From Cyanophora paradoxa CCMP329 (Eukaryota; Plantae; Glaucophyta), in assembly GCA_004431415.1 (NCBI GenBank), contig QPMI01000658.1, positions 1 to 64,000 of the forward strand: 64,000 nucleotides of DNA. Direction: 5' to 3'. Numbering within the stretch: the first letter of the stretch is position 1; each line of letters starts with the position of its first letter. The notes beneath the pieces are model-generated. The model worked only from the letters and a program-made list of their open reading frames with translations, was not told where the DNA came from and did no database searches. Below are positions 3,101-61,680 of the stretch, piece by piece. Both the position numbers and the translations under genes were made by a program.

Positions 3101-4246
3101 CCACTCCGGCCTCCAGCACGCCCCGCCCCGCCCCGCCCCCTCCTCCTCCCCATCCTCCCCGCGGCGCCTGAAGCTCTCCTCGCCCGCAAAGCCCCCTCCC
3201 CCCCCTCTCCCCCCCCCTCCCCCCCCACCCCTCACGCCGGGGCGCCCCGCCCCCGGCCCCCTCCCCCGCCGTTCCCTTACGCTTTCCTCGCCCCGCCCCG
3301 CCCCGCGCGCCTCCTACCCGCCCCGCAACTACCCTCCCATACGCATCCCCCCCCCCCCCCTCCACCCCCGCGGCGCCTTAAGTTCTCCTCGCACGCGAAT
3401 CCTCCCACCCCCTCCCCCCTCTCCACCCCCTCACCCTCCTCCTCCGCGCGCCCCTCACGCCGGCGCGGCAGTGCACAACACGCTGCTGCTGGGGACGACC
3501 CTCGCCGTAGCCGCCGCCCGCTCCCTCCCTTGGGACTTCTCCCCGGAGGCAAGTACACATACCCCCCCCTCCAACCCCCCCCATCTTCTCCCCTCCTGCC
3601 CCCCAACATAGGCCCTCAGCTTCTACCCCTCGACCTCGGCATGGAAGGCCGCTAGCGCTGCTGCAATCTTGGCTCCGGCTCCGGCCCTGCCGTTCTAACC
3701 CCAAGCCTAAGCCTCGAGTCTCGAGCCTCGAGCTTGCCGTTTTCGAAGTTCTTCGTTTTGAAATTCCAATAACCGGGTCCCGGCCGGGGCAGGTTGCGGT
3801 GCTGCTGGCGGCGCAGGCGGCGTTCGTCCTCCTCGCCCGCCGCCGCTCCCTCTCCCCGCCCCGGTGCCCTCCCCACCCCACCCCACCCACCCCACCCCCC
3901 CCCACCCCCCCCCTCCCCCCCACCCCACCCCACCCCACCCCCCACCCTCCAACCCCACCCCCCACCCCCACCCCAACCCCGCCCCCCTTCATCTAAGAAT
4001 AAGGAAGGGCCAAGCGTCTAAGGAAGTAAGCATCGATTTCGAATGATATAATGGTATTAGGATCCTTTCCCACCCCCCGGGGGCCCTCCCCTCCCGTTCG
4101 ATCCCTCTTGGATCCCTTTGGTCGCTGACTTCGCCGGTGCACTTTGGGCCGTGGCGCGCAGGGCGCTGGCGTGCGGGGCGCTGCTGCCGGCCTCGCTGCT
4201 GCTCGCCGCCGCCCTCCGCGCCGCCGGCTGGGGCTCTCCCTACTAG
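106..4246 (+). CDS. 3' part of a spliced NCL/EF-CAX-like Ca2+/cation (Na+/Ca2+) exchanger gene; 5' end lies outside the window
   Basis: Manual splicing of exons ..-1564, 2259-2379, 2663-2729, 3472-3548, 3793-3863 and 4162-4246 gives VWHAAGTAAVGAALVLLFSDPLVDVMAAGSAAAGVGPFAAAFVAVPLLTAAPEYTFAYQVARSGRPASASLAVAALVASAVVHNTLLLGTTLAVAAARSLPWDFSPEVAVLLAAQ...LLPASLLLAAALRAAGWGSPY*. This follows the C-terminal pattern I recall for plant NCL proteins (DPLVD..PLATNSSE..ASL..NN..W.FS.E..YP.SL..GW). Splice phases are consistent. Upstream exons (106-232, 285-639 and parts of 716-1564) are low-complexity and less certain. Confidence 0.75.
3871..3985. repeat. Degenerate (CCCCA)n / poly-C tract in an intron, with G-quadruplex potential on the minus strand
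   Basis: Run of ccccacccca-type units, absent from the paralogous intron at about 7763-8140. Confidence 0.7.
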
Positions 4247-4621
4247 CTAGAGCTCCCCCCCCCAACCCCCCCTCCCCTCCCCTCTCTCCCCTTCCCCTGG
4301 GGCTCACCCCTGCTAGCGTTTCCCGAGCCCTGTACATACGACGAGAGCGACCCGAGGTTTTCCTTCCATCCTGCGTTCGAGTATTTATTGCCAGCGCTAC
4401 GAGCTTTCTGTTGAGCATGACGCCCGTCCGTCGACGTCATGCATTTTCTTCAGGCAATAGCGACCGATCGAAATTGATATCCGGAGCTCATACACGCCTG
4501 CCAGGCTGCGCATGATATAGCTACTACCGTAAACGTAGTTCTTATACCAGGATACTAGCTGCATCATGCCTGCAGCTGCATGTGCCATCGTCCGACGTCG
4601 ACGGTCGATGTTTCGGTGCAG

Positions 4622-6564: not shown

Positions 6565-6877
6565 TAGCTGCGAGGTCCGTCAAGGTATCAAATTTTAGCT
6601 TAAGCTTCATGATCCGATGATCGATATCATTGCTGCTTCAATTGCAAGCTGAAGCTGATCATCTTCGGTTAATGAGCTAAGCATAAGCTTAATAACTCAA
6701 TTCTACTTCAGCCTGACTTGAGCTGAAGCTCACTCGCTTAGGCTTAAAGCTTCAGTTCCTTCCTAGCCCAGGCGTATATACGTACTCGAGCTCGCCCTCA
6801 GCTCACTGAGTCACGCTTAAGCGTCCTCGCCGCGCCAGCAGATCTTTCTTGTCTGACGCTTTCTCTTTCTACCTCAG

Positions 6878-8228
6878 GTGGCGCGCTCGGGGCGGCCGGC
6901 GAGCGCGTCGCTCGCCGTCGCGGCCCTCGTCGCCTCCGCCGTCGGCGCGCCCCGCCCCGCCCCGCCTCCCGCCCCCTTCCCCGCGCCCCGCCTCCCTAGG
7001 CCTAGAGCTTTGGACGTGCGCCCCCGCCGCCGGGCCGGGTCCTCCACCCTTCCCTTACGCTTTCCTCGCCCCGCCCCGCCCCCGCGCGCCTCCCATCCGC
7101 CCCGCAACTACCCTCCCCATATGCATCCGGATCCCTCATCCCTCTTCCCCTCCCCATACGCATCGATATCCCCCCCACACCCCCCCCCCTACACCCCCAC
7201 CCCCGCGGCGCCTTAAGTTCTCCTCGCACGCGAGTCCCCCCCCCCTCCCCCCTCCCCCCCCCCCCCCCCTTCCCCTCCACCTCCGCGCGCGCCTCACGCC
7301 CGCGCGGCAGTGCACAACACGCTGCTGCTGGGGACGACGCTCGCCGTCGCCGCCGCCCGCTCCCTCCCCTGGGACTTCTCCCCGGAGGCCCTGAGGTGAT
7401 CATGAGGATAAATCAGGATCTAACTGTGCACATGTAAGGATCGAAGGATCTTATAATCTAATTAACATCTAGGTATAAACAACATTAACTAAGGATCTAA
7501 GCATGTAATGTAATGTAAGCTAGAGGCGCGACAGCCGCCCCGGCCCCCGCCCTCCGTCTCCGCTGCTGCTACTGCAGCTGCTCGCGATCGCCGCCGTTCC
7601 CGCTCTCGCCTTCTCTAGTGAGATAGGCCCTGGGCCTCGAGCTCCCCACGGGCTTCGCTTTTAATGTTCGGGCCCGGCCCGGCCGGGGCAGGTGGCGGCG
7701 CTGCTGGCGGCGCAGGCGGCGTTCGTCCTCCTCGCCCGCCGCCGCTCCCTCTCCCCGCCCCGGTACGGTGCGCCCCCTATCATCCAAACATCCAAGCATC
7801 TAAGCGTCTAAGGTTTCTAATCTTTGGATATAAGAATCTCTCTCCCCTCTGTCGCCCTCCCCTTCGATCCCTCTTAAGCTTGGATCCCTTGGATCGAAGC
7901 CTAAGCGTCTAAGCGTCGAAGCTTCTAAGGAGCTAAGGCCTGACTCTAGACTCTAGGAACGGATCGCTGACTCTGACGGTGCACGCGCCGCGGCGGGGCG
8001 GCATCTAAGCGCCGAAGCGTCTAAGGATCTCTCATCTGCATATATGGATCTAAGGATCTCTCCCCGCCCGGGGGCACTCCCGTTCGTTCACTCTTGGTCC
8101 CTTCGGTCGCCGACTCTGTCGGTGCACGCGGAGCGGCGCGCAGGGCGCTGGCGTGCGGGGCGCTGCTGCCGGCCTCGCTGCTCCTCGCCGCCGCCCTCCG
8201 CGCCGCCGGCTGGGGCTCCCCCTACTAG
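6878..8228 (+). pseudogene. Second copy of the last four exons of the NCL-like exchanger (partial duplicate or alternative 3' exon set)
   Basis: Exons at about 6878-6944, 7311-7387, 7692-7762 and 8144-8228 are near-identical to 2663-2729, 3472-3548, 3793-3863 and 4162-4246, with intact splice sites and stop codon. Only a MITE-disrupted remnant of the preceding exon exists (about 6316-6575). Confidence 0.7.
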
Positions 8229-8919
8229 CGAGAGCTAGGCTGTGCGGCTCCCATCTTTTGCGAATAACCTCCCCGCGAGCCCCTGATCATGAGTATACAT
8301 AGCGCCTCCCCCGCCCTCCCTCTCCCCCTCCCCCCCCCCCCCCCCCCTTTCCCCAGCTAGCTCACTCATCAGCTGGAGCTCATCGTTTCTCCCCCGCCGC
8401 CCCTCCCCCTCTCCCCCCGTCCCCCTGGGGCTTCCCCTGCTAGCGTCCCCCGAGCCCTGTACATACGAGAGCGATCCGAGGTTTGCATCTCAGTCATACG
8501 TACGGGCTAGCATACATACATACGTCAGTCAGGAGCTCATCGTTCGCTGGTTTTGGTCATGCTTCGAATATCTAAGTGTTATGAATACGCCGTGACGGTC
8601 CGCGAAATTGCGAGAATCTACGAGCAAGAGCTAGACTGCGGACTAGCTATATAGCGACCGTCGGACACGAGAGGGAGCGAGACTACCGTATATCTAGAGC
8701 GGCCGGCACTTCGGATTCGACCTCAAATATATATTCAATTGCAAGGCTTCATGATCAAATACTAATTGCCGGGGTTTGGAGCTAAAGCTCACACAAAGGC
8801 ACAGTGATGTATAATTAGAAACGCTTCGAAGTCCTATCATGCTTGTGTACTTGGAAGTCTTTTTAGAAAACAGAGACCGTCGGACTGGATAGCGGCCTTG
8901 TAGGCCGTCGAGTTGCGAC

Positions 8920-10683: not shown

Positions 10684-11656
10684 GATGACTCAGTTAAGTC
10701 AAATGGCCCGCGCTGTGTTACGCCCGAGCTGTGCTATATACGCAGAGCAAACTGTGTATGTATAGCTGTGGTCAGAGTTTGTCAAGGTGTATACGTACAC
10801 CACTGAAAAAGCGCGCACACGTGCACGTCACGGCGTAGACGTCCGACTGGCACAAGGTCGTAGCTGGCTTTGCTAGATGCGCATGCAGCACTGCAGCTTG
10901 CTTAAGCTTCCAAGCCTGGCAAGCTTGCTTGGCAAGCGCCGCTAACGTTAGCTGTACTACTGCTGCTGTATACGTAGCCGACTACCGTACAGTACTAGCT
11001 GTAGTAGCTAACACGCCTGCGGAGAAGCCGGACGTGCTACGTTATACGTACGGGACGGTACGGCCTGAAATGGTTCGGCCACTGAGTCACGGTATACTAT
11101 GATAGAATAGGCCTAGGAGACCCGGGTCACCCGGCCCGAGTCAGTGTGACTCATCATGATCACTGAGTCAGTGACTCACACAGTGAGTGACCCGACTCGA
11201 GCTCGGCCCGGCGGCCGGCGCGGGCCGGGGAGTCCGAGTCTGTCCGACCGTCGGACGCCGGACCGAGGGTCCGACGACGAGTCGACGACTCGCGAGTCGC
11301 GACGGCCCGGTACCGCTGTTACCCAGTACTTGAATTATAAGTTTATAACTTAGTAACTCAATCTATCAGTACAGTATAATACAGTATATAAGCCAGGGCC
11401 GCGGGCTTCATGTTGGGCCCTAAGCTTGAGCGATCGTGCGAGATGAATTGAATGTCGCGATCGCGATCGCAAAACCGAATCGATATATAATCGAATATTC
11501 GTTGTGCATATAGAAATCCAAAAATGAATTAATGCATATTGGGGGTACAATAGATGGCCGGGCGGCTGCGGCGCAGAGAACAAATGTTCACAGTATTGGA
11601 GTAACATTCTGTTCTTTTTTAACGTTTTCACGTAAATAAAATATTCACAGTATTAG

Positions 11657-11912
11657 TGTCGCGTGCCGCGATTCCCTCGGATTAGGCTAGCCGGCAGTCT
11701 ATGCGTAGCCGCTAGCCCTAGTCTAGTGCTATCGAGCAGCTAGCTCTAGCACTCTCTGTATTCTGACTTAGCGCCGGGCGCGACTCCGTTTGGGGGTACG
11801 CGATCCCTGGACGGGTACACTTGTGAATAGACCACTTGTGCTCCCAGCTACAGCCCCAGCCCGTGCGTGACCGCACGGACGCTGCACCGGGTGGGAATCC
11901 TCTCATCCGACA
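11657..11912 (+). repeat. 5' LTR (256 bp)
   Basis: Exact direct repeat of 30087-30342; TG...CA ends with a 5-bp terminal inverted repeat. Confidence 0.97.
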
Positions 11913-12457
11913 GGCGCCATCTGCTCACGGAGCCAGAACCCCGATCATCAGCGACCCGTCATCAGCAACCGACCCAGCTCGGCGACCGCGGCTCAGCCGG
12001 CGCGCAGGTAGACCTCAGCAGAGGTCGTGGGTCGCTTCTCGCGCCCCGCCTGCGCCGCTCCGGGCTGATCCGCAGTTGGCGACCGAACATTCTGGAAAGA
12101 ACCAGAACTTAGTCCTGCGGATCCAGGAACGCGCGCGAATACCGAGGGATCCCCGTCCCGATCGGATCGTCGCCGTTTCCTGAGCGAGCTGCGTGCGAGC
12201 CCGTGGGATCATTCCTGATCGGTCGCTAGTCACTCGCCGCGACGCCAGCCTTCTCCGGCTGTTGCGATCGTGCTGGACAAGACGAAGAGCGATCGGATCG
12301 ACGGCTGAGGCGTGCGCGCCCGAGCTGTCTCCGGAATCGCCGCAGCCGAGCTAGTGAGCTTGCTCGCCGCTGCTGTGGACCACGACGGCCTCGGATCTCG
12401 AGCGAGGCACATTCTCTCACGGAAAAGCGTGGCATTACGTCGCCGCTTGACCTGAGA

Positions 12458-14034
12458 ATGTCCTCGGGGACCGGAGCCTCCGCGGAGTTCGTCGTCCGGG
12501 CCGCGCACGCGCGTGGCGCCGCCGACATGGACTCTATGAGCGGATCAAATGTTTTGCAATGGATCCAGAGCCTGCCGAAGCTGCCGCCGGGCAGCGATCA
12601 GCGCACGGTTCAGGACCACCTCCGCCAGTTCGAGAGCTGCGCGAGCATGAGCAAGGACTTGCTCAGTGTCTCGCCGACTGCACACATTGAAGTGCAGAAG
12701 CGAACTGGGTGGGCTCTTCTCGGCACGCTAGATCACGGGCACCCCGTGCGCCAGAACATCTCGCTGTTCCAGAGCGCCGAGCAGATCGACACTCGCGAGC
12801 TCGAGAAGCTGAAGGCGTACCGGGCCGAGCGTGCGCGCACGAGCACGGCGGACCCGCGAGACGTCGCGATCCTCGAGACGCTCGACGAGAAGATCGCGCA
12901 AGCCGAGGAGGGCTTGCAGCGGACCGCCCTCACGGTCACGTACACCGCGATCAGGCGCCGTCTCGAAGATGACGCCGAGATGCGGAACCCTGACCGGTAC
13001 AAGGCGCTCCTCGACCTGCCGCACGTGGGCGAGGCGCCGGAGGCGTTCTATCGCCGCGTCCTCGACTTGAGCATCATCCCGGAGTGCCGCGAGGCGCACG
13101 AGACACCGCTTATGGCACTCATGCGCCACGCGGGCCAGATGCTCAAGCGCCGCACTCGCAATCAGTGCCGCGACTTCGAAGACTCCGAGATTTCGGACAC
13201 CGATCGCCGGCACATGATGACGAACTTCTCCACGGCTCGGAAGATCTATGACGAGCTGTCGCAGAAGATCGCGGACCGCGAGATCACGGGACCCTCTGCG
13301 GTCATCGACCTGGTAACCAAGCGCACCAATGAACTGGGCGCCTGGGACGTCGATATCTCCAAAGTCCCCGGCTCGGCCCTAGTGCTGGGCTCGCGCGGGA
13401 CGCCGCTGCAGGCGCCCACGGCTGCCTCGCGCACGCCGCAGAGCGCGCCGCCGATCACGCACACGCCAGCTGTCCCCGTCGTCCCCTCGCGCTCGAACGC
13501 GGGCGCCGGCGCGGGCACGCGCATCATGCTCGCGACGACGGTGTCGGAAGCCGAGATCGCAGAGCTTGAGGCAAACGCGTACGGGTGGGACGCGGACGAC
13601 GCCGAGGATCAGAACGCCGAGGTCATCTCGTTCCTGCAGCTCATTGCTCGGGACGAGCCCCTCGTCGTAGTCCGCGCGCTCTACCCGTCGGCGTCCGCAC
13701 CGCCGCCCCGCCTTGACGACCCGGTCTATCAGCAGAAGATCAAAGACTTCCTGAAGGCCCGGGGTCTCCCCGAGAAGCCCCGGCGGCCGTGCCACTGCGG
13801 CGAGTCGCACTACTCGTTTGAGTGCCGGACCAACCCGCGGCCTCTGCCCGAGTGGTCGGCAATCAACCCGGCCAAGCGCCGCGGGCCAACGGGCGCAGGC
13901 ACCGGTGACCCGAAGCGCCGGTTCTACCCGCGCCGCAGGGTGGGAACGGCCGCTCGAGCCCCCCGCCCCAGCAAGCTGCAGGGCCCCGGGCGTGCTACAA
14001 CTGCGGCAAAACCGGCCACCTGGCCGCGTCCTGC
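12458..14034 (+). CDS. gag: Gag region: putative capsid plus two Zn knuckles
   Basis: First ATG ORF after the 5' UTR; atypical knuckle CHCGESHYSFEC at 13790-13825 and canonical CX2CX4HX4C CYNCGKTGHLAASC at 13993-14034 (in the -1 frame). The capsid assignment is positional inference. Confidence 0.75.
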
Positions 14035-17000
14035 CCGGCCCAGGCGCAGACGCTCGAGGCCGCGGTCCGCCGCGCGCTTGCAGAACACGCCGCCGCCGCT
14101 GCAGCCCCGCCCGTGCCGCCCGCGACGCCGGCGCCCTGGGCTGACCCCAACGCCTTCACGATCGCGCGCGCCATGCTCGAGCAGGCTGCCCGAAGCGGCG
14201 CCGCCGGCCCGTCCGCGACTGCACTGCTTCCCGCGCCGACCGGCGGCCACGGGTCGGGGCCCACGGCGGCCCCGGCGCCCGCCGAGCTTGGCAAGGAAAA
14301 GCACGTGTACCGTGTGCGCATCGTGCGCAGCGACGAGGCGTTGGTCGACGATACCTTCCGAGCCTTCACCGCAGCGGCCGCGGCGCACGCCGCCGCGCTG
14401 CAGGACCCCCGGACGGCCCCGCTCTCAACGCGGTCGCCGCAGCCGCCACCGCTTTCGCGATCGCAGTAGTGCAGCTGTCCGGGGAAAGCCGCCCAGACCT
14501 GTGCCCCACGGGAGCCGAGAGGCCGGCCCCCTGCGAGGCGCAGGACCTGTTGCCGACCCGCCCGGAGTCGGGCCTGGACGAGGGGGAGAAGAAGGTCGCG
14601 TTCGACGCAGTGGACGCCGCCCTCGAGGAAATCGCACTCCTCTTGGCGGCCGCCCCGGACCCAACGGAGGTCGAGGGCGCTGACGCAGCAGCGAAGGGTC
14701 CCGCGCCGACGCCCGTGCCGACTTCTTTCCCCGCCGAGCTCGCCGCCGGCATCGTGGACGCCGCCCTTGAGGAGGTCGCACTCCTCTTGGCGGCCGCCCC
14801 GGACCCAACGGAGGTCGAGGGCGCTGACGCAGAAGCGAAGGGTCCCGAGCCCGCGACGGAGCTCGCTCCCACCAAGTCGGTCCCGAGACCGCCGCCGCCG
14901 AGGCTCCGGCGGACCCCGCCGCCGGCGTGGGCTGCTGCCTGGGGTACTCCTCGGGGCCGAGACGGTAGCGAGCCTCGAGGTGACCGACGACGGCGCCTCC
15001 CTCGCCGACGAGGACGCGACCGTAGCGTCTAAGGAGACCCTGCGCCTCAACCGCGCTCGCCTCCTCAGCGCTAGCCCCGGCCTAGACCTCACTCACTTCG
15101 GAGCCGTTGAGTTAGAGCCGGTGAAGGGCCGCGAGCACGAGCTGGGGCCCGTTCCTCTCTGGAACGTGGACGCGCACAAGCTGAAGGGCGCCGCGTCGGT
15201 CCCGCTCGACCGCGCGGCGTTCCTGTACCCAGCGCCGTGCGAGACTCACTGCGGCTGCACTGTGAGCGAGGGGCTGATCGAGGTCCGGGACGAGCAGTGG
15301 TATGCCACTGCGTTCCGCTGCCCGGCCCGCACCCGCCAGACGCTCTCCTTCTTGCTTGCGGCGTTCTCTCAGCCGCTCGCCACCGAGAGCACGTACCTCG
15401 GCTCGCGGACCCTCCCCACTGCGTTCCTGCAGATGCTGGGGCATGACCCGCTGTCCCAGGACACGCTGGCTCACGCCTGGCCGACGCACTATTATGAAAT
15501 CATGAGCCTCACGCACCAGGCCTCTCGCGTCGCCGCGAAGTGGGCCGGGGCCACGCGTGGCCGCACGCCGAGGGCCTCACGCCCGAGGGTCGCCCCGCAG
15601 TCGAGCCCGACGCCCACAAGCTTACGAAGCTTGGGGACGAGTGCGTCGCTACCGCCGGCTGGCTGGAGCCATACCGCCGCCACTGGAGCATTGGCCAGCA
15701 CTCGCCCGTGGCGGCCTCTCTCGAGCCGCACGAGATGACAGTGTCGGGCCGCCGCCAGCTAATCGAGCTGAGCGAGCTGTTGCCGGCACAGGACCGCCTC
15801 CGCCTTGCGTGCGCCTCGACTGTTGCGGGCTATTTCCTGCACCGCGTCGACTACGGTGCCCCGGGCACCGCCGGCGCCGTCGAGAAGATCCTCGGCCGCT
15901 TCTTTAAGTTCGCCGAGCCGCTCATGGTGGACGCGCGGGTCGACGCCTATGGCTTCGCCCTGCTGGCCCTCGAGCACGCGATCCAGTGGAAGACCGTGGC
16001 TTGCATCGGCGGCCGCGCCGGTCCCCACGACGCCCACAAGAGCGCCGTTGCCCTGGCCGACGGGAACCCTCTTGTCCCCTCGGACTCGGAGTTCACGGAA
16101 GCCGTTCACTCGCTTGCCGTCCTGGCTGCCTCCGTTGAGGTTCCGATCCCGGGGCGGGCACGTCTCCGCTCGGATCGGGACGCCGAGGGATGGCTGCGGG
16201 CAGCGCTCGCGGAGCGTCTGACTGCGTACCGCGACGGCCGTGCCCCCGCCTTCCCGGTCGTGAGCGAGGGCGAGTCCCGCACGGTTGAACGCGTTCCGGT
16301 GGAGCCCCGCGTCGCCGCCGCCCGCGTTCTGCACCTCCGGGACCTGCACTTGTGCGACACCTGGCTGCACTGGCCGCGCCTGCACGGGGCAGAGCCTGGC
16401 ACGTGGAGGGTCGGCCGCGTGCGCCCGATCACGCGCACCACGCAGTTGCCCCTGCACGGCACGACGCGAGGCGGGCAGCTGCCCACGATCGTGCCTGAGG
16501 AGCTCTACGTGCTGAGCCAGCTCGGCCCGCGCCCGCCGCTCACCGCCCTGTGCGATGCAGCCTGGGCCCGCACGGTTCCCGGATCCGCCGGGGCCGCGGA
16601 GCTGCTCCGGTACATCGAGGGGGCCAAGGCGGGCGACCGGGCCCACCTCGTCATTCTATTCCGTAGGCTGCTGAAGAAGCGGGCCGGTTTCAATGACGAG
16701 GCTGTCAAGGACATGATCGCGCTCGTGGAGAAGTGGCGCACGGATGCAGGCAGCCGCACCCCCACTCCTCTCCACGACCTGCCCACCACGCCGAAGCCGG
16801 CGTCGGACACGACGGGCGCCTACACGGCGAAGGCCGTCAGCGCGACGATCAAGGAGGCTAAGGCCTGCCTGCCGCCGCGCCCGCCTGTGAAGGCGCTCTC
16901 GCCGAGGGACCCGCCAGCGCCGGCGCGGCCGGCGCCCGTTCCTGTCCCGCCGCCTGCACCGACGGCGAAGCTCGTGACCTTGCACGCCGCGGCAACATGG

Positions 17001-20000
17001 CCGCCGCTTGCGAGCCCGATGGCGCCGCGGCCCACCGCCGCTCCGACGCCGCCCGCCACTGAGCCCGCGCCTGTCGAGCCTCGCCTGAGCGAGCCGCTAC
17101 TCGACGTCGCGCGCGCGACCGCGCCGGCTCCCGGCAGGCCGCCCGTCGCGGCGAGCGTGGCCGCGGGGACGGGGTCGTGCGCGTCAGCACCCGTGGGCGC
17201 GGCTCGCAGGGGCCACGAACCCGCAGCGCCCGCCGTGGGCAGGCTGAGGGGGAAGACGCCGAGATGGGCGAGCGGGGCGACGGCGATGAGGCGCCCGAGG
17301 AAGCGCCGCCGCCGCCGCCGCCGTCGGCTATCGATGAGAACCTGAGCCAGCGGGCCCTGTACGAGGCTATGGGCGTGATGAGCGGCGTCCTCGCAGTGCC
17401 GGGGTGCCCGCCTCGGCTCTGTGAGGGAAACAGATCACCGAGTGGCCCATGACGGCCCGGTCTGATCTCGCCCACCGCTGGAGCATCCCCTTCGACGCAC
17501 TGAAGGGCACGTTCGAGGACCTGCGGGTCCCGCACCTCAAGGCGTTTCTCGCCAGCGAGAGGAGCACGCCAATCCAGAACCGCCTGGATGGGCCGCCCGT
17601 GCCGCACGAGGAGCCGCCGGAGGGCCGCGTCGCGCTCAGAGCCGATCGCACCGTTCGCCTCGCGCGGCTCAACGCGGCCGCGTTCGAGCTCTTCATGATC
17701 GCGCTGGGGCTCCGTGGCCCCGTCACGCCCCACTCCCACGATCTCCCGTTCCACCTGCATGAGTGGACGGAGCAGCAGTTGGAGCACTTCCTGACTCTGC
17801 GTTGGACGATCCCTGCCACGCGCCTGCCGCGGTGGACGCACGGGGGCCGCTTCAACCCGAGCGCGGCCGTCATCCCGCCGCAGTGGGCCCAGTACCTCTT
17901 GCGTGCTCACACCATGTTCCGCGCCGAGGCGGTTGGGACCACCGTTCCCTCCGCGGAACGCGCCGGCCTGGAGTTCCCGTACGGGGTTCGCTGGCTGCGC
18001 CGCCACCTGCAGCTAGGGACGCGCGCGCAGGAGGAAGCCGCCGAGAGCGACCCGCACAGGGGCTTGGCCCTGACCGCCCAGCGCGCGGCCTTCCAGGAGA
18101 AGGTCTTGCATGCCCTCGAGCGTCACGCTGCACGGCAGTCGTTCACGTTCGACGATGCGCTTGTGGGCACCTACATCGCCGATGAGCCTGAGCCCCGCCT
18201 CGAGCCGCTCGACATTGACCATGTCGAGAGCGAAGAGGAAGAGGGCGAGAAGGAAGAGGCGCCGGCTGCCATCCCTGCGGCGGCGCACAGGCCGTTCGAG
18301 CCGCACAAGGACTGGCAGCCGCGGCCGCTGTTCTCGTTGGCGGACCCGACGTACGCCAACGATCACAAGCTCTTGCGCGAGTACATGGACCGGAAACACG
18401 CGTTTTTCCGGCCCCTGGAATGCTATGAGCCAGGGTTCACTGAATGGGCAACGCTGCCCGCGATCAGCTACCCCTTGCGCTGGCAGCACGCCGGCGACGT
18501 TGACGAGTACAACGTCGACGTGCTCACGCTGCAGGACCAGCACATGGGCGAGCTGTGCTCAACTATGCTCAAGCGCGTCGGCCCCGCCGCGCGCGGCATA
18601 GTGAACTGGTTCTCGCTCGTAGGCCCGCCTCAGCGGCCGTTCGACGAGGATCCGGAGCTCTTCGACCTGCAGGGGCTTGCATTCCCGCACGCCGCCTGCG
18701 GCGTCAGCTTGGATATCGTGCAGTACCTCGCGGTCGGGACCCGTACCGCACAGTCTGCCGTCCCGACGTACACGGGCGCCTGGGATCTCACGCACGAGGG
18801 CACAGCCCACGCACCCGTGTGTTCGACCCTGGGCCAGGTCTCGCGGGTGCTGTATACCGCCTTCTTCCACGAAGGCGGCGGCGCGCGGAACGCCCGCCGC
18901 CGTACATGCCGCACCCCGAGCGCCCCACCCTGCACACCTCAGTCTTGGGCGGTAACATCGCCGACCCGAACGAGGAGGACGCCAGGACGCCGTTCGCGAC
19001 CCGCTTCGCGCGCGACGTCGCCGTGCTGGCCCTGCTGCGCCCGCTCGCCGACAAGCGCGTCGAGAACGTTGAGGGTCGCCTGCAGACGCGGCGCATCTAC
19101 GCGCCCCGCCTCGTGGCAGGCACGGCCACGCCCGCGCCGAACGCTGCCTGCGACAAGGACGTCGCAGGGGGCGCGCCGCACCAGCGCGAGAACAAGAAGC
19201 TGTGGCTCGCAGTGACGGTCGCCCAGCTTGCGAGCCAGCCCAAGAAGAGCCACGCGAACCCGCGGCTCGTCACCGCGTTCGGTTACGAGCTGCCGCCTTT
19301 CCCGAACTCACCTCCGGGGACGTGCCCTTGGGCGCCGATCCCGGCGGAAGAGGAAATCCTCGCGACGGCCATCGGTTTTACGCTGGCCTGGCACGCGCGC
19401 TTCTTCCAGCGTCACGCGCCGGGCAAGCACCTCCGCAGCCAGCACTGGGCTGATGACTTTCTGTCGGCTGCGGCCATGGACGTCGAGTCGGAACGCCCGG
19501 CTGACTACGTCCCCGAGATCGCTCGGGCGGTCGCCGATCACATGGATGACTTCAACAAGGTGTTGAACTCGTTCCGCTGCGTGGTGCCGGACGGTCTGAT
19601 GGTGTTCATTCACGAGGCCTTCCTGACTAAGCCGACGGCCAAGCCGGACCGCGGGTCCGACGTCTTGCCTCAGGGCAAGAAGGTCTTCGACGCGGACGCG
19701 AGGCCGACGTACCCGGACGGTCATCCCACGCTTGCGTGGAAGTTTGGCCCGAACAATGCGGTCGTGCCGGACCACGAGGGTCGTGCGGCGATCTGTGGGC
19801 GGATCCTGCTCGCGATGCTGCAGGGCTTCCAGTATCCCCGCATCCCGCTGCTCGCGCAGCGGGTGGACAACTGTGCGCCCCTGAACGCCGCCATGCCCCA
19901 GAACGTGGCCGAGGTCTTCAGGGCCCTCTTGCGCACTATGACGAGGGATGAGTGCGCCGACTCGGATGCCCGCGCGCTGGCGGACGGCATCCGCGCGTAC

Positions 20001-23000
20001 CTCACAAACATGCCGCACGGTCTCGGGTACCAGCGTCTTGAGCTCGGCTCGCCCCCGATGGCCGGCGCCGAGGACGCGTGGCCCGCCGGCGATGACCTTG
20101 GCGCCGGGGGCAAGAGTGGGATACAGCGCCACCTTGAGGCCGCCCGCGCCGCCGAGGAGCTGGAGAACTGTCCCGGGAACTTCCCGCTGGGGCTCATCTT
20201 TACCGATGAGGCTATACCCCTGCGGCCTCAGTTCGAGACGATGCTCCGTTCGCTCTACGCCGATCTGAATGTCGCGATCCGCCTCGCGCGCCCGATCGAC
20301 TGGGAGACGGACGACCCCGTGCTCCCCGACTGGGACGTTGAGGCTCTGCGCCCGGCGCTGATGTGGGACGCGGTCCAGAACAAGGGCGCCGCGCCCTCGG
20401 CCCGGCGCAGCCTGACTGCGACGGCGGCTGTCGATAAGGAGGCCGAAAGCCTTCTGGTTCGCACGCCGTACCAGCCGATCTACGAAGGAGCGGTCCGCGC
20501 GACGTGGGCGGGCGTGCGGTTCCAGCCGCCCTCAACCATCGTCGGCGGGCTCGCGGACGACCCCGCCGAGGCGGCGCCATCCGCCACCCCGTCGGCGCCC
20601 GCGCCGGCGCAGGCCGCTGCGCAGACCGCCGCGCCGCCGACGGCGCCGCAGCAGGCGCGGCCCCGGCGCAACGCGGGCCAGGCCGTTGGCCGAGGCGGCC
20701 GCGGGCAGGGTCACCAGCGGGGCGGCCGGCACCGCGGTCGCGACGGCCGAGGCCACCGTGACCGTGGCGGCGACCGCGGCGGTGGCCAGGCGCAACCCGC
20801 ACAACCCGCTGTCGACCCGAACGACCCGTTCGGGCTGGATGCGTTCCTCGCGCGGCAGCAGGGGTATGACCCCAAGACCATGCGCGTAACCGTCTCGGAC
20901 GGGAAGGTGAAGGTCGAGCGGATCGCCGAGAGCGCTCCGCCAGACCAAGCCCCGCCGGCTGAGACTCCCTCCCGGACCTTGATGCCGCCGCCCAGCTCGA
21001 GCCGCCAGGCCGAGGCAAGCTCGAGCCGCAGGACGACACGGCCAGTCGCGCGTCGCAGGCCCGCCGGACCCCTGAGCGGGCCTCGTCTCAGCGCCGCTCG
21101 CGCACACCCGAGCCGCGCCGAGCCCCGTCCAGTCGCCGCTCTCGCACCCAGACAGGCGCGAGACGCGGGGCCCCTCCACGCGCCGCGAGCGCTCCCCGGA
21201 GCCCCACCGGCAATCCCGGGCGCCGCCGCCGTCCCGCCGTTCGTTGGAACGCCGCGATCGCGAGGGCTCCCGACGCCCTTCGCCGGACCGCCGGGACCGC
21301 GAGGCCTCCCGCCGCCGCTCCCCGGACCGCCGTGATCGCTCGCCGCCGCGCCGCGACCGCAGCCCGCCGAGCCGACGGTCCACGGCTCGCGACACTCGCG
21401 GCAGGCGGAGCCCTCGCCGAGGCTCGCGGGAACGCCGCCGGAGCCGAACACCGTCCCGCTCTAGCTCCCGCTCGCGCTCGCGCGATCGGAGCCCGAGCCG
21501 GAGCCCCCGCCATGACGATAAGCGGCGCAAAAGCTCGAAGAAGGGCTCGCGCGACCGCGCCTCGCCGCGAGACCGCCGCAGCCCTCGCAGCAGCCAGTCC
21601 TCTCGCCGCCCGCCGGACCCGCCGCGCGGCGCCGTAGACGCTGCGTACAAGCGGCACGAGAACGACGCCCGCCTGCGAGGCTGCCCGCCCACATTGCGCG
21701 AGCTCTTCGACATGGTCTGGAAGGCGCAGTACGCTGAGATGCCAGACTCGCTCTCGGCGTCCGCGCGAGCTGAGCAGGCCACCGCGCTGGTCCTGATCAA
21801 GCTCCAGAACCAGATGGACGCTCAGTCCGCGTCGTCCTCGGCCCGCGCCGCCGCGCCACCATCGGGTGGGCAGCCGCCGACGGGCGGACGCAACGAGCGC
21901 CAGCAGCCCTTTCTAGAGGGGCCTGAGGGGCAGAGCGAGGCCGGTCCGCAGTCGGCGGCGCCGTCCAAGCCTGCGGAGGGTCGCGCCTCCATCTCTCAGG
22001 CCCAGGAGCGGTCATCGCGTGCGAGCCAGGCCGAGCCGCCGCGCGCAGACCAGTCGACGCCGGAGCAGCCGCGCGCCTCAGTGGCCGCGCCGCGCGCCTC
22101 CGCCGCCACGACTTTCAACCCCAGGCTGACGTCCCAGCAGGGGCCTCCTGCAGTTTGTGCGCGAGTGCTCGAGCTGCCGCGACGTGAAGATCCGGGGCCA
22201 AGGGGTCACGGAATTGGGGCTTTGGCTTCAAACAGTCGAGCGCCAGATCCGCACCGCCGCTAGCCACGCCGAGACGCGCGCCAAGCCCGGCGGCGCTCAG
22301 AAGGTCTCAGACGAAGCCTTCGCCCAGGCAAAGCAGGCCGCTCGGCGGGCCCTGGAAGACGTCTGCCGCGCCCTCCGGGCCGGCATCGATATGCAGATCA
22401 GCCTCTCCGCTGGGAGACGGGCATGATGATCTCGCTCCTCCCAGACGGGCCCCGTGCCGATCTCGAGGCTCTGCGGGCCACGCTCGATCGCACCAAAGAC
22501 TGGCGAGCCTTGCTTGAGCGCGAGCGCCAGCACGAGGCTCGCGTGGCAATGCAGGCCGCGGCAAAAGCCAACCCAAAGCCCTTCTTCGCGGTATACACCG
22601 TCGCAGAAGCGTCGTCACCCCGCGGGCACGAGGCCCGCGCGCCCTGTGACCTTCCCGCCCACTTGCATACGCCGGCGTCGGTCCGGGCCGCTGTGCCGGT
22701 GCCGGCGGACGAGAAGTACATCTCGATCCGCCGCGTCCAGACGGTCGTCCACGAGCCGCCCGCTCAAACAGTCGCGCCGCCGGCGCCAGCCGCGCCGCCC
22801 GCCCGGCCCCACCAAAGAGCCGCGAGCCTGCGCCGGCCTGGGCCCGCCGCCTGCTGCACAAGCTCGGGCCGCGCTCGACCGTGCTGGTCTTCAACTGGCT
22901 GTCGAACCCCGCGCAAATGCTGCAGGTCGATCCAAAGACCCTGGAGCCCGCCTTACGCGCGGTGCATCAGGCGATCATGGACCGCTACGGCATCTCGATG

Positions 23001-26000
23001 CGCAAAACGGGCTACAAGGCCCCGCCACGGCCGACTCGCGCGTGGTTCTCGGGTTCAGCGCCGACAGCGGCGTTCGCCCCGCAGAACGCGCTCGAGGCCG
23101 CCGCGATCATTTACCCCGAGGGCCTGACCTCCGACGAGGAAGCTCTCATGCCCGCGGGCCACGCCCTGGGCTCCAAAAACCGCCCGTCCCTCGCCGTGCC
23201 CCGCCCAGCAGAGGAGACGCCGCTGGGAACGCGCGCCGGCTATGACCCGCCCAGCGACGAGTTGCTCTACGCCAACCGCCACGGCCCGGGCCCGCGCAAG
23301 CGGACCAAGCCCTCGCCGTTGGCCGACCAGGCAGAGCAGCGCCGAGTCGCCGAGCGAGCCGCGGCTCGCCAGTCCCGGCCCCCATCCCCAACCGCAAGCG
23401 CAACGGACCTGTCGGGTCCACCCGCGCCGCCGGAACCAGAATTCCACGTCCGCCGCGCCCGACCTAGCTTCCCGCGCGACCGGGCCCTGGAATTCTTCCG
23501 GCCAAAGACACTGCACATTCACGGCAGCATTGCTATGCGCCTGCCGAACGGCCGCTCCGGCGCTGAACGGCCCGCTCGCATTGTTGTCGACACGGGCGCC
23601 CAGGGAACTGTAGTTCCCCAGGAAGTCCTCGACCGCCTGCCGCCCGACGAAGTCAATTACGTCGAGGGCCACACGATAGTCCGCGGTTTCATGGACCGGG
23701 ACAAAATTCGTTGTCGCCGCGCCGACGTAGTCTTCGTTCTGGGCTCGCTCCGCTTCTGCCGCCGCGTCTTCGTCGTCCCGCGCGGCGCCATGGGCGTTGA
23801 GCCGGACATTCTGCTCGGCCTGGACGCGATCCAGGCCGTCCACGGCCAGATCGACACGACGCTGTCCGGGTGGTGCCTCCGGGCCCGTGACCACCTGCAC
23901 CGCGAAGTCGTCGTCCCTTTTCGGCTCCGGACCAGCTTGGGATCCTGGTCCGAGTCCTGGGACCAGTAAAGCTCCCCGTCGGAGAGGCCCTCGTCCCATG
24001 CACGCTCAATGGGCAGGGCCCGGCAACGCGTGAGTTGCCGCACCTCTACGTCGAGCCGTCGCCGGAGTCCCCGCAAGCCTTGGGCGTACTCTGCCCTTAC
24101 CAGCTGCATAATCACCCGGGAGACAAAATGTTTCACGTGCGGTTGTGCAATCCTGGCCGGCAGCCGGTAACCCTGCCGCTAGGATCGGTAGTAGCGGTCG
24201 CTTCGGCGGTCGCCCTACCGCCTGGTGATTTTGAGTACGAACCTGAGCAAATGCCTTGTAGTGCGAGTGCATTGACAGACCTCTTGATTCGCCGGCTGCG
24301 AATCGTGCCTGCCAAACGCCGCACTGGACTCCGCCACTTTAATAGAAAAGCACGCATGCTTGGCGCGGCATATGAGCCCGCCAAAGACGTTGAGAAAATA
24401 ATCTCCACCCTACGTTCTGTCGTAGATGAGGCGGAAAAGCAGCGCGCTCTGTCTAGCGCAGCGCCTGCTGAGCCCGCCGACCCACCCCGCGCACCGCCCT
24501 ACGACGTCGACGATATAGTCGTCACGTTTGGCGAGCTGCCCTTCGACACAGCCGACCGGCCGTTGCAGGACCTTGATGCTATGAGCATCATTAGCCTCGA
24601 CGACGATGCTATGAGCACGTCGTCACGAAGCGCGTCCCCAACGCCGGCCCCGATCACAGGCCCCTCGGTCGACGAGTTCGTCGCCGCAGTCGAGGCAGTG
24701 TCCGTCCCCAGAGACGCCACCCTGCGCTCGACCTTCCCCGGTCTCTCCGAAAAAGCGGAGCGCGACTTGCTCGATGCAGTCCGCGCCATGCGCGGCGACG
24801 TTACGGTCCGCAAGGCCGCACCGGTCGCCGACGCCGAGGCCCCACCCAGAGTGTGGTCACAGCCTCGCTTTCGGCCCGGCCCGATGCCCCACCCCTACGA
24901 CTGCAGCACCCGACGCGAAGCCCGCTGAGGCACCGCGGCCGGTGCCTAATGCAGAGGAGGAGTGGCAAGAGCTGCTGAAGAAGATTCCTGAGCTCGGCTC
25001 TCACCCGTCAATCACGACGGCGCAGAAAGCCGAACTTCACGCGCTCCTGCGGCGCTACAAGGATGTCTTCGCAGACAAGGTCGAGGCCAAAGAGGGCACC
25101 AGCAACCTGCTCTATTACGAGCACGTGATCAAACTCACGACTCGCCTTCCGGTGTTCACGCCTCCGCGGCGTATGAACCCGCACGCCGAGGAACACGCCC
25201 GCAAGGAAATTCAGAAACTCCTTGAGCTTGGGCTGATCGAGCCCTCCCAAGCGGCATATGGCTCGCCGGTAGTGCTGGCCCCCAAAAAGGACGGCACTTG
25301 GCGTTTCTGTGTCGACTATCGGAGGCTGAATCAGATCACCGAGCGGGACGTGTTTCCCCTACCCCGCATAGACGACCAGCTCGAGCGCCTCCGCGGCTCG
25401 ATGGTCTTCTCGACTGCTGACGCGACTGCCGGCTTCTGGCAGCTGCCTCTGCACCCCGGCTCCCGAGCCTACACTGCATTTGTGGTCCCCTGGGGTCACT
25501 TTCAGTGGAAGGTTACGCCGTTTGGGGTCACGAACGGGCCCGCGGCATTCTCCCGCGCGATCACTGCGATCCTGGGCCCCTTGCTGACCACCTGCGTCGT
25601 CGCGTACATCGACGATATCACGGTCTTCTCACCGTCCATCGATCAGCACCTTCTAGACTTGAAGGCGCTCTTCGAGACGATCTCTAAGGCGAACCTGCGC
25701 CTGAAGCCGTCGAAGTGCCGCTTCTGCGTGCCTGAAATCGACCTTCTCGGCCACCGCATCTCCGCCGAAGGGATCCGCCAGGACCCTGCGAAGACCAAGG
25801 TGATCACGGACTGGCAGACGCCGAAGAACGCGGACGAGCTCCGCTCGTTCCTCGGCCTCGCCGGCTACTACCGCCGCTTTGTCGAGAACTTCTCCAAAGT
25901 GGTGCACGCCATGCAGCGCCTTCTATTGAAGGACGCCGTCTGGAGTTGGCCAGAGGACGGCCCCGCCGACCGCGCCTTTAAGGAGCTGAAAGAACTCCTG

Positions 26001-29000
26001 GGCCGCGATATTATATTGCGGTTCCCGGACTTCTCGAAGCCCTTCATTCTCCAGACGGACGCCAGCACCTACGCTATCGGCGCAATTCTGAGCCAGGCCG
26101 ACGACAAAGGCGTCGAGCGGCCGCTCGCGTTCATCAGCCGCACGCTGCTGCCGGCCGAGATGAACTACTCCGCTACGGAGCTGGAGTGCCTCGCAGTAGT
26201 CTGGGCCATTAAGTATTGGCGCCACTATCTGCTGGGCGGCCCCCAGTTCCTGGTGCGGACCGACCACCACGCCCTCCAGTGGCTGAAGACGCTGGACCCG
26301 ACGACGGGCCGCCTCGGTCGCTGGTCCCTGCTCTTGCAGGCCTACGACTTTGAGATCGTCTACCGCCCTGGCAAGCAGAACGGGGGTCCCGACGCGTGCT
26401 CGCGTCTCCCTAAGGACCACCCCGTCTGGCAGCCAGGCGGTGCAGACGGTTCCTCGTCCAAGCCCGCGGCCTACAAGGGCGCCGAAGGCTTCGGCATCCC
26501 GCAACATGCTGTAGGGGCTGAGCCTGAGGATCCCGACGTCCCGCTGGGCATCTTTAGGATGCAGCTGGGCCCGACCGAGCGGGCCCTGCGCCAGCTCGCC
26601 AACTCCGCCGGCTTCCGCGCGGAAGCCCCAGCCGAGGGTGGCCGAGCCGCTAGACGCCGAGCGCCCCGGGCGGCGCCTGCGAGCGCCCCCTCTTCCCGCC
26701 GGGCCGCTCCTCTTATGCAGAGGAGGAGTCGCGGCCCCCTGTGCCAGCCAGTGCTCCTGAGGCCGAGCCCGACGCCGGCGCCCCTGAAGCGCCCGCGCCC
26801 GAGCCTGAGGGTGAGGCTGGCGGTGCTGCGGAAACCGATTCCGACGCCGAGCCCCCGCCGCCAGAGCGCGCGCCGCGACGCCTGCCCCGCGAGCTCGCCA
26901 AGCTTGCTGCGTCGGCTGGGTTCGCTGAGGCCAAGGCCTCCGCCTCGGCTACTGACGCCGCCACGCGCAAGCGAGCGCGGGCCGCCCCAGAGCGCTTCGC
27001 GCCTCCCGCGCCAGAGTCGGTCTCGCCGCCCCGAAACGACGAGAGCCGGGCCCGGCGCCCGCTGTCGAGGAGCGCGAGGCTCCCTCGGACGCGGAGATGC
27101 CCGACGCCCCTGAGGGCGACCTGGGCGCCCCGGCCGCGCTGCTAGAGGACGCTCACGCAGAGGCCGAGGCCTCGGGCGAGATCGATGACGAGTCGCTGCC
27201 GGAAGGGCCTGTCCCCTCCGACGCCTGCGACGCTGACGGCTTCCCCCTCGCTCTTGCGGAGCGAGTCCCGAAGCGCTCGGAAACCGGGCCCCGTCGGTGG
27301 GGCGCCAAGGGATTTGCCGAGCCGCGGCCCCTGCATCCCGACGCGCTCTTCCCTCGCGGCCCCGCCTTGAGGCGGCAGCCTCGAGATGAGTACAACACGC
27401 GCCACTGGCGCTCCCCGGTCGACCCCTCGGATCGGCCGGTGCCGATTCATATTGAGTGGGAGCCGGAGGACCCTGAGGGCGAGCCGCCTCCCGGGCCTCC
27501 GCGCCGACGCTCGCTCTCCCGGAGACTGCTCGCCACCAGATCCGCGTTCGGCCGGTCCCCCCGGACCCCAAGCCAGCGCCGCGGGCTCGAGGTCGCCCCT
27601 CTGCCCGCGGGCAGGCTTCCGACGACGCCGCCCCGCTCGAGCCTGAGACGGTCGCCGCCGAGGCCGCTGCCCCGCAGCGGTGGGTAGAACTCGACCCTAG
27701 AGGCCGGGACGTTCGCCCGCCGTGCAAGCCGGTCTTCGTGGATACCGTCCTCGACGCGTGGGCCTGCGGACCCTCGCCAGCCGTCGATGGGGCGCTCCCC
27801 GACGCGCTGCGCCGTATGTTCCCGCCCGAGAAGCGCAAGCGTCTGCTCGCCGCTCAGAAGGAGGATTCCTTCTGCAAGAAGCTTCTCGCCTTCCACGCAG
27901 AGGGCGAGAATCCAACTGTCTGTACCCGCGGCTCGAGGCGCGACGCAGATCCCTGCTCGCCCAGCTGCGCTCACTGCCTGCGGGCCAAGGAGCGCTTTGC
28001 ACGCCTGGCCGGCGAGTTCAGCCTGGCCGACGACGGCGTCATCGAGCGCAACCCCTTGGTCCCTGCCGGCCGGTTCCTACCCGTCTTGCCGGACGCTTGG
28101 ATCGACAGGGTGCTCTACGCCTATCACGAGGGCTGGGCCCATCGAGGCGCGCCCGTGATAGCCCGTCGGATCGCCCTGCGGTTCTGGTGGCCTGGCATGT
28201 ACGCCTCCATCGCTCGCTTTGTGCGGTCGTGCCCGCACTGTCAGTTCGCGAAGGCCGCGAAGCCCCGCCGTACCGCCATTCAGGTGATACAGCCTTCGGG
28301 CAAGGGAGACCTGTGGCAGGTGGATATCTTCCACTTGGATATGCACGAAGACGGTTCGCGATACATCATCGCGTACGTCGACGCATACACCAAGTTCTGC
28401 TATATCTACCCGCTCTCCCGTATCTCCGGCGAGGCCTTGCTCGCCACCGCGATCGACTTCTATACGCACGAGGGCGTGCCCGCGCGCATCCTGACGGACC
28501 GCGGGTCCCAACTCGTTGGGGGCGCGTGGAACGCGTTCTTCAAGGAGAAGGGTACCCGGTTCGTGCACGCGGCCGCCTACCACCACGCCTCGAACGGCGG
28601 CGCCGAGCGCCTGGGCGGAGTCTACAAGACTCTCGCTTACGCCATGTGCCGTGAGCACAAGCGGCCGCTCTCTGACTGGCCTCTTTACAACGCCGATATC
28701 GTTCTCGCGTTGCGGACCACCGTGCACTCCGCCACCGGGTTCTCCCCGATGGTCTTGCACCGCGGTTCTGAAGTGCACCTGCCCTGCGAAGTGCGCTTCG
28801 GAGCCGGCGTCCGCTTCGTGAACCCCGACCACACGCACCCGGCTGATTACCTTCTCGCGATGACGCGAGCTGCCGCGAGCGCCGACGCTGCCTCGCGCGA
28901 GTACCGTCGGTTCTATCGGAACCGCATGGTTGCTCGCACCGGCAACCCGCCTCATCGTCGCCGCTTTGAGGTTGGCGACAAGGTATTGTGCTGGATGGGC

Positions 29001-29398
29001 GAACACAACAAAGGGCTGTACAATTCGTGGGTCGGGCCCTACACTGTGACTGGTGTTAACCCTGGCGGTTACACCTACACGGTCAAGGGGTCGGCTAAGC
29101 CCTACTCCGCCAAGGACGATGCCCGTACCCGTCCTCTGCGTGAGACTGTTGCCCACATCGACTGCATGCTTCCGTTCCGCACGCGTCTCTCCGAGTCTCA
29201 AGCCCGTCCCCGCGTTGGTCGGCCTCGGAAGACTGCTGTGAACGCCGACGAGCCGGCGATCGACCCCGCACTCGCGGACTCGCCCGCTCAAGAACAAAAT
29301 CCACCTCTCGCCCCTGACGTCGACGCCGAGGGCCCGAGCGGGCTGCCGAGGGCGACGAGGTTGAGATGGATGACGCGATTTTGGTCGACGACCTGTGA
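12458..29398 (+). CDS. Gag-cargo-Pol polyprotein of about 5,650 aa after joining about 21 single-base -1 shifts
   Basis: Successive ORF fragments join without stops when one base is restored at about 13929, 14408, 14883, 14930, 15548, 17237, 17426, 18894, 21026, 21148, 22120, 22142, 22412, 22803, 23920, 24888, 24893, 26695, 27059, 27491 and 29341. The joined frame ends ...EMDDAILVDDL* at TGA 29396-29398. Confidence 0.75.
14610..14851 (+). repeat. Internal coding duplication: about 98-bp unit, 144-bp period (VDAALEE[IV]ALLLAAAPDPTEVEGADA.AKGP x2)
   Basis: Near-identical copies start at 14610 and 14754. Confidence 0.9.
23510..23920 (+). CDS. Retropepsin-type aspartic protease domain
   Basis: IVVDTGA (DTG at 23589-23597) and DILLGLD motifs. 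Confidence 0.9.
25020..26410 (+). CDS. pol: Reverse transcriptase and RNase H (Ty3/Gypsy type)
   Basis: SPVVLAPKKDGTWRFCVDYRRLN, PLPRID, PFGVTNGPAAF, YIDD (25605-25616), FLGLAGYYRRF; RNase H motifs TDAS, ELECLAVVWA, TDH, DACSR. No frameshifts in this block. Confidence 0.98.
27830..29180 (+). CDS. Integrase: HHCC, DDE core and GPY/F motif; no chromodomain
   Basis: HEGWAH...CPHC; WQVDIF, LTDRGSQ, SNGGAERL; TGFSP; FEVGDKVL...WVGPYTV. Confidence 0.95.
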
Positions 29399-30074
29399 GA
29401 AGCTCGTCCCATTGCTGTTCCCTTTGCGATCGCTGTGCTTGCGCCGTGGGGCAGATTTCTTTGCCCGCTTTGCCTCAGCCCTGGCTTCCGAGGTGGGACG
29501 TGGGTTGGCTGGTGGCCAATCACGGGGCGCCATCTGGGCCTTTCGTTCCATTTTCTGGGATCTGGGCCCGTCGCTCGTGGAGAGTGGCTGGGTGTAGGCC
29601 TCCCGGGTGCCTGCGGGTCCGTGAGGGGCTCGAGGTTGCTGGCTGGGGGTGCACTCAGTCGTGCCCTATCCTTTCGTTGGGCCTGATGGGCGGCCCGGAT
29701 ACCTCCTCGCTGGTTTCTTCCCGAGGCGGTGAAACTTCCCATCCGTGCCACTCTCCTTCGGCTCTCGCCGTTGGAGCGAGTTTGGGCCAGCTTTTGGGGG
29801 TTTCGAGTTCTATGCTTTTCCATCTTTCGAGCTTGGCCTGGGTTGCCTAGGTACATGCACTATGCTGGTATCGGCTCCTATTTCGGTCGCGAGCTATGCT
29901 ACCTGGCATATCTGGTTGCTGACGACGGACATTCTACTTCGAGAGGAGTTCACTCGCCGCCGCCCTGTCGCTGCCGTGGTTGGTGCACACCCCGGCGGTG
30001 GGGTGGACGCCCCGTCGAGCATGCAGACTCGACGTTCGGCTTGGCGCGGTCCGGTGCGAGGACGCACCGTATGC

Positions 30075-30085
30075 AGAGTGAGGAG
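30075..30085 (+). other. Polypurine tract (plus-strand primer)
   Basis: AGAGTGAGGAG, one base upstream of the 3' LTR start at 30087. Confidence 0.75.
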
Positions 30086-30086
30086 T

Positions 30087-30342
30087 TGTCGCGTGCCGCG
30101 ATTCCCTCGGATTAGGCTAGCCGGCAGTCTATGCGTAGCCGCTAGCCCTAGTCTAGTGCTATCGAGCAGCTAGCTCTAGCACTCTCTGTATTCTGACTTA
30201 GCGCCGGGCGCGACTCCGTTTGGGGGTACGCGATCCCTGGACGGGTACACTTGTGAATAGACCACTTGTGCTCCCAGCTACAGCCCCAGCCCGTGCGTGA
30301 CCGCACGGACGCTGCACCGGGTGGGAATCCTCTCATCCGACA
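30087..30342 (+). repeat. 3' LTR (256 bp)
   Basis: Identical to 11657-11912 and followed by the ATTAG TSD. Confidence 0.97.
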
Positions 30343-61084: not shown

Positions 61085-61680
61085 GTGTACGGATGGCGCT
61101 CGGCTTGCACTTGAACGTACGCGTACGCGTGGCCGTACGCGTGCCCCATCCGTCATAACCAGCGTTCTGGATGCCATGGGCACGGCCACTAAACAGCCCG
61201 GCCTGGCGCCTGGCGGGCACTGGCAGTGACCGCGACCCACAGCGCTGCAACTGCAGTGCAGGTGCAAATGCAGTGTCAACTCGGACTCGGGGAGTCAACT
61301 GCAGTGCAGCCTGTGCAGGTGTATATGCGAGTATCCTGCTGTGAGCTCGAGGCTGTGTCGCCGCTGTGACCGTGACGCACCGTGGTCCGTGGCACGCGCT
61401 ATTACGTCTACCGGAGTAGTATCATAGTATATACGTACGTAAGACGTTTTACGTACTAGTACTACGCGATACGGTAGTACTGTAAAGCAGGAATTCGAAG
61501 TCGGGAGACTCGGCCCCGAGTCGGGACTCGGGACTCCGGGACCCGGGAGTCGCGATCGAGTCGGGAGTCGGGACTCGGGACTCCGCTACAAGTTATTTGG
61601 AACCGTGTGGCTTTCCGCCATAGTAACTTTTCAAGTTTCCCAGCCTAGAAACTCGGGCCTTAACTTATAATTACGGCGTC

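Follow-up and report, generated by a model that had tools for sequence, protein, structure and literature searches.

The window analysed here, 64,000 nt of contig QPMI01000658.1 from the glaucophyte Cyanophora paradoxa CCMP329, contains a long stretch of complex coding sequence behind the nucleocapsid of a retrotransposon, raising the question of whether this stretch is a genuine protein domain and, if so, what it does for the element that carries it. The first-pass annotation proposed a folded accessory domain, for example anti-silencing or particle-related. We find that the region, referred to below as block 1, is a genuine accessory domain of a giant gypsy element, orphan and under selection, with context favouring a particle- or RNA-related function over others only modestly.

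The carrier element

Block 1 lies inside a Ty3/gypsy LTR retrotransposon of 18.7 kb (11657–30342), with Pfam matches to a CCHC knuckle, aspartic protease, RT, RNase H and integrase giving the domain order Gag-PR-RT-RH-IN. The main features of the carrier are:

11657..11912, + strand: 5' LTR, with TG...CA ends; target-site duplication ATTAG just upstream (11652–11656)
12458..13393, + strand: Gag N-terminal region, from the ORF1 start codon; capsid-like by position alone, no Pfam match, 131/312 identical to a diverged second family (family B)
13987..14037, + strand: CCHC zinc knuckle (nucleocapsid); Pfam zf-CCHC, E 5e-7
23568..23853, + strand: aspartic protease, in the ORF1 frame; Pfam Asp_protease_2, E 7e-5
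25281..26345, + strand: reverse transcriptase and RNase H (Pfam); best PDB match Ty3 RT, E 1e-84
28089..28583, + strand: integrase zinc-binding and core domains; Pfam Integrase_H2C2 and rve
30087..30342, + strand: 3' LTR, 100% identical to the 5' LTR; ATTAG directly after

The LTRs, of 256 nt each, start with TG and end with CA, and their complete identity together with the ATTAG on both flanks points to a recent insertion and a young element. Among solved reverse transcriptases, Ty3 RT scores 288 bits against the RT of the element, the next enzyme 173 and retroviral RT ~104, a comparison of bit scores rather than a tree. With respect to the chromoviruses, Pfam gives no chromo match in the integrase ORF, whose short tail past 29332 reads as 22 acidic residues.

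An inverted repeat with arms of 83 nt (11391–11473 and 34057–34139; 72% complementary) brackets the LTR element, and since these arms enclose it, they suggest that it landed in an older terminal-inverted-repeat element of ~4 kb. Elsewhere in the window, blocks at 2657–4341 and 6872–8468 are duplicated ~4 kb apart with 80–97% identity, a 51-nt unit forms a tandem array (40379–41290), and nested, MITE-like inverted repeats of 76–94 nt with ~90% complementarity lie at 61677–62999. Exons on the minus strand (~42500–61400) carry TIG, G8 and beta-helix Pfam matches and presumably belong to one large fibrocystin-like host gene.

Block 1 lies in a single long reading frame

In the window, block 1 is split over two frames, with the two pieces and their surroundings arranged as follows:

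14472..15021, + strand: acidic linker (20.6% D+E) with a 144-nt-spaced duplication inside; last ~85 aa strongly conserved between families
15022..15549, + strand: N-terminal piece of block 1, 176 aa; contains the longest motifs shared unchanged by the two families; poorly modelled
15546..15550, + strand: G homopolymer, one base short in the assembly; artefactual frame break
15549..16763, + strand: C-terminal piece of block 1, 405 aa; helical core that includes a strand-helix-strand unit (~15768–16355) and a four-helix bundle bearing a conserved basic patch (~16518–16745), both predicted
16764..17108, + strand: Pro-rich linker (27% P); poorly conserved, 24/110 identical

An assembly error accounts for the frame break near 15546: contigs from 4/4 runs carry one more G and 7 of the 18 related gene models read in frame across the junction; most of the other models bypass it by a short predicted intron or miss that part. 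Comparison of contigs and window yields 33 indels, and all 12 of those listed are a single base absent from a C or G run. Contig pieces supply 2, 3, 8 and 1 extra bases between 13413 and 23774, and with these 14 bases restored the frame from 12458 to the stop at 23969 measures 11,526 nt, or 3,842 codons, with all block frames in agreement; this length is a hand tally in which 14661–14803 and 23774–23910 fall outside the listed contig pieces. Block 1 is coding and in frame with the Gag start, with four relatives (P0009, P0012, P0017, and P0019) uninterrupted from the Gag start through block 1, and Gag, block 1, a second cargo block (block 2), and the protease likely form one ORF1 of ~3,840 aa.

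Homopolymer errors conceal giant ORFs of this kind, which gene models break by false introns. Such splitting may be one reason why LTRs were scored at only 1.77% of the C. paradoxa genome in the genome paper, which reports them as totals (PMC6704402).

Composition of block 1

Part of what the first-pass annotation had read from the letters was confirmed. A complex coding region of ~580 aa follows the nucleocapsid, at 15022–16763, and contains all three of the motifs that had been quoted from it (PCETHCGC, HAWPTHYY, and LHLCDTWLHW); its codons are GC3-biased as described (GC3 of 0.86 against a GC2 of 0.51–0.53), and the acidic and Pro-rich stretches said to bound it are the two linkers listed above. 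Block 1 comprises 2.3–2.5% W, 4.2–4.5% H, 1.2–2.3% C, and 6.4–8.5% F+Y+W, such that its description as rich in Trp, His, Cys, and aromatics is correct relative to the linkers, but not relative to RT-RH (10.6% F+Y+W) and the integrase (12.5%). The absence of a TM segment was also correctly noted, with maximum 19-residue hydropathy values of 0.86 and 1.31 for the window pieces, and 1.71 and 1.37 for the relatives P0009 and P0012, and neither a convincing TM segment nor a conserved hydrophobic stretch in any of these sequences. Basic and acidic residues nearly balance (61 K+R against 64 D+E in P0009), leaving block 1 with little net charge.

Relatives of block 1

Protein searches returned 18 related gene models on 18 differently named contigs, one of which is possibly the locus of the window itself. 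Sixteen of these models, on distinct contigs, constitute family A and are near-identical or close to the window copy, with all 9 listed members of the near-identical set having EukProt Cyanophora paradoxa accessions, and with P0009 identical to the window pieces at 168/176 and 369/405 residues. P0012 and P0019 form the diverged family B, in which Gag, block 1, and block 2 follow the same order as in family A. A profile of block 1 searched against 1.84 billion protein representatives gave 7 matches, all sister copies within the 18-model set, with no host paralogue among them in a library that includes Cyanophora proteins. Neither Pfam nor this search yielded a family for block 1 or a homologue outside the Cyanophora genome, consistent with the first reading that no family could be recognised, and metagenome, phage, and Atlas searches with block 1 added nothing usable.

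Contig joints at 15194–15294 show two distinct depths that add up, hinting, as a lead only, at a third family, as such joints can also stem from repeats. In P0017 the Gag start resembles that of the window copy and the nucleocapsid that of P0009, and the knuckle region of family B is unlike that of family A in a comparison of P0012 with P0019; together these observations suggest recombination between subfamilies.

Conservation and predicted structure

Between the two families, represented by P0009 and P0012, block 1 is identical at 302/580 residues with 9 gapped positions, and is thus better kept than the capsid region (131/312), the upstream linker (70/230), and the downstream linker (24/110). 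The window pieces are identical to family B at 301/571 residues, with aromatic residues and Gly preferentially retained (W/Y/F kept at 28/41 positions) and the longest identical runs found in its N-terminal and middle portions. Of 1,500 neutral simulations at equal divergence, none remained stop-free (mean of 6–11 stops), none kept as many W/Y/F residues as observed, and one had mismatches as conservative as those observed, under a simple simulation model specific to this analysis and distinct from dN/dS. Block 1 is under purifying selection, and the neutral evolution among copies that would have spoken against the first-pass proposal is not seen.

Cysteines fare differently, with 3/9 retained in family B. 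PCETHCGC and LHLCDTWLHW were considered as a conserved metal site, which is ruled out by the diverged family lacking these motifs. A Cys/His zinc-binding domain, raised by matches to Pfam zf_VAL1_N below the cut-off (E 0.14 and 0.042), was similarly rejected, with family B keeping only a His-Cys pair around PCETHCGC.

The best conserved part between families is the ~85 aa just upstream of block 1 (~14900–15021; 59/85 identical), and because this segment is even better conserved than block 1 itself, the conserved unit may start near 14900. The stretch is acidic and Ser-rich, and contigs of relatives match its DNA; it may serve as a signal in the RNA or as a region of cleavage, or may stem from recent exchange.

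AlphaFold models of block 1 are of low confidence (mean pLDDT of 44.4 and 46.5), with 356/580 residues below a pLDDT of 50 and 101/580 at 70–90; disorder throughout, the other outcome that would have counted against a folded domain, is not seen in them. The models show regular secondary structure, mostly helical, and predict that block 1 is soluble and largely helical, with the basic patch of the C-terminal bundle retained by both families. Fold comparison with these weak models (pLDDT 44–46) gave no match for block 1; for a MAIN/VANC-like fold, as in VANC and plant mobile domain anti-silencing factors, Pfam gives no match, and the models available for comparison are the same weak ones. The proposal of a folded accessory domain under selection is supported by the identity between families, the retention of W/Y/F and Gly, and the predicted secondary structure.

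A candidate −1 frameshift after the protease

One frame change is left uncorrected by the contigs, just past the protease, where the following feature is found:

23915..23969, + strand: candidate programmed −1 frameshift, with a C CCT TTT heptamer in register (23915–23921), a 6-nt spacer, an 8-bp hairpin, and the ORF1 stop (23967–23969)

Because the contig covering this region (23910–24974) has two gaps only, at 24844 and 24891, the shift after the protease seems real, though the heptamer lies 5–11 nt from the end of this contig, the sole one listed that covers it. The element contains four canonical slippery heptamers, of which only that at 23915 is in register, so that the change of frame coincides with a heptamer of the X XXY YYZ type. 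The hairpin, 6 nt past the heptamer, has a folding energy of −13.6 kcal/mol, with z-scores of −0.4 to −2.3 depending on the segment folded, so that its stability is not clearly above that of shuffles. A programmed −1 ribosomal frameshift is probable at this site, and would leave block 1 and the protease at Gag level and RT-RH-IN at a lower level. The candidate site sits after the protease rather than before it.

What block 1 might do

Our favoured reading, held tentatively, is that block 1 is a soluble factor, released by the protease, whose target is the RNA or the particle of the element itself. The frameshift after the protease would limit RT-RH-IN, with ORF1 (Gag, block 1, block 2, and protease) made in full; the element's protease would then cut in the flanking low-complexity linkers, releasing a block 1 protein of ~63 kDa; and, most speculatively, this protein might bind, export, or package the 18-kb genomic RNA as an auxiliary to the nucleocapsid. 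This reading is favoured because of the position directly after the nucleocapsid, the likely abundance and solubility of the product, the conserved basic patch, and the unusual length of the genome, with a precedent in CERV of Cer1, which exports unspliced genomic RNA (PMC10309623). The near-neutral net charge, unlike that of a typical RNA chaperone, counts against it.

A role in counter-defence is conceivable but somewhat unlikely: like VANC of VANDAL, released block 1 would move into the nucleus and there free its own family from CpG methylation or from silencing by small RNAs. Methylation in C. paradoxa reaches 32% of CpG and covers most repeats (PMC12344493), and the family is young and multi-copy despite this methylation, as seen from the identical LTRs and the 16 family A models on distinct contigs; the basic patch could serve as a nuclear signal, and counteraction of silencing has been reported for TE accessory proteins (PMC13547354). 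However, block 1 matches no Pfam family in sequence, a late Gag-level product is not an obvious place for a chromatin factor, and conservation above capsid level would suit an arms race less well than a core function. We consider it unlikely that block 1 is a diverged enzyme, for example one modifying or degrading nucleic acids, with a known fold masked by shallow alignments. Enzymes are rarely needed at Gag level, which counts against this possibility, as does the lack of a recognisable catalytic motif or profile match. Whilst the size of block 1 and its conserved polar clusters (H273-R274-x-D276, D303, D307, E317-H318, and D336-x-H338-K339 in the numbering of alignment A2) would suit an enzyme, and helicase, exonuclease, and demethylase domains are known in LTR elements (PMC6338049, PMC9289625), these residues are not outstanding between two lineages at 53% identity, with D kept at 12/28, E at 20/36, and H at 14/25 positions.

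Two further possibilities appear highly improbable. In Burro, an in-frame env-like region separates gag from pol (PMC6431247), and an Env-like or cell-to-cell transfer protein could occupy the equivalent position between Gag and protease here; block 1, however, has no conserved hydrophobic segment, keeps few of its cysteines, and is predicted to be mostly helical and soluble, and it was rejected as an Env-like protein for want of a TM segment and conserved cysteines. A neutral passenger, whether a fragment captured from a host gene or disordered sequence serving as filler, would agree with the many residues of very low pLDDT, but is opposed by a frame that stays open and changes conservatively in both families, and by the absence of a host paralogue among the 7 profile matches. 

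A bolder reading, possible though doubtful, is that block 1 is a new fold released at capsid stoichiometry from a 3,800-residue Gag polyprotein, keeping an 18-kb element active in a CpG-methylating glaucophyte through anti-silencing or a larger particle. Block 1 would then be the LTR-encoded equivalent, in the earliest-branching plant lineage, of VANC or Rev, and the mark of a clade of giant gypsy elements that comprises several families and is laden with cargo.

Comparison with known elements

The element resembles Ty3 (Metaviridae) in its PR-RT-RH-IN order, TG...CA LTRs, 5-bp target duplication, and RT, but its nucleocapsid and protease are set apart by ~3,000 additional residues. Ty3 itself, at ~5.4 kb, has a +1 shift before the protease. 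In layout it is most like planarian Burro (GYPSM1), a giant Ty3/gypsy element with a multi-thousand-residue ORF1 (4,873 aa) in which Gag and CCHC knuckles come first and additional domains follow in the same frame, ahead of the protease (PMC6431247). In contrast to the extras of Burro, which are recognisable (MATH, BIR, ankyrin, BCL2, SUMO-like, and env-like) within an internal region of up to 25 kb, the cargo of the Cyanophora element is orphan and without TM segments, and the element has 256-nt LTRs, a glaucophyte host, and a probable −1 frameshift after the protease.

CERV of C. elegans Cer1 offers, by analogy, a functional model for the favoured reading, as a novel protein of a gypsy-type element needed to handle unspliced genomic RNA, but is made from spliced mRNA (PMC10309623); no similarity in sequence or fold between CERV and block 1 came up in the library searches. 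The additional ORFs of plant elements (Ogre, Athila, Grande, and Retand) are likewise family-wide, conserved like core proteins, without homologues outside the element, and of unknown function, but are separate ORFs lying mostly between pol and the 3' LTR (PMC7264820), whereas block 1 is fused in frame in ORF1. VANC of the VANDAL DNA transposons is also an accessory protein in a repeat-methylating host, but is dicot-specific and MAIN-related (PMC13547354), and has no match to block 1. The papers covered by the literature searches contained no description of the Cyanophora element or of a cargo-laden giant gypsy clade.

Significance and further cargo in ORF1

LTR elements need only Gag and Pol, and a domain of 580 aa that is more strongly conserved between families than the capsid region therefore points to a life-cycle step off the standard list. 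Block 1 therefore bears on how reverse-transcribing elements manage genomes far over 10 kb, and on how elements remain active in hosts that methylate repeats. With a culturable host, a young multi-copy family, and linkers bounding the domain, block 1 can be directly expressed and its structure solved.

Block 1 is followed in ORF1 by a second cargo block:

17425..20333, + strand: cargo block 2, ~960 aa, a conserved orphan; 45–46% identical to P0019 (family B), no Pfam match, no similarity to block 1

Further downstream, ORF1 contains a long Arg/Ser-repeat (SR-like) segment (~21300–21600) of possible relevance to RNA handling, and another complex, codon-biased stretch before the protease (~22400–23100), with no Pfam match, is a possible third, small cargo block.
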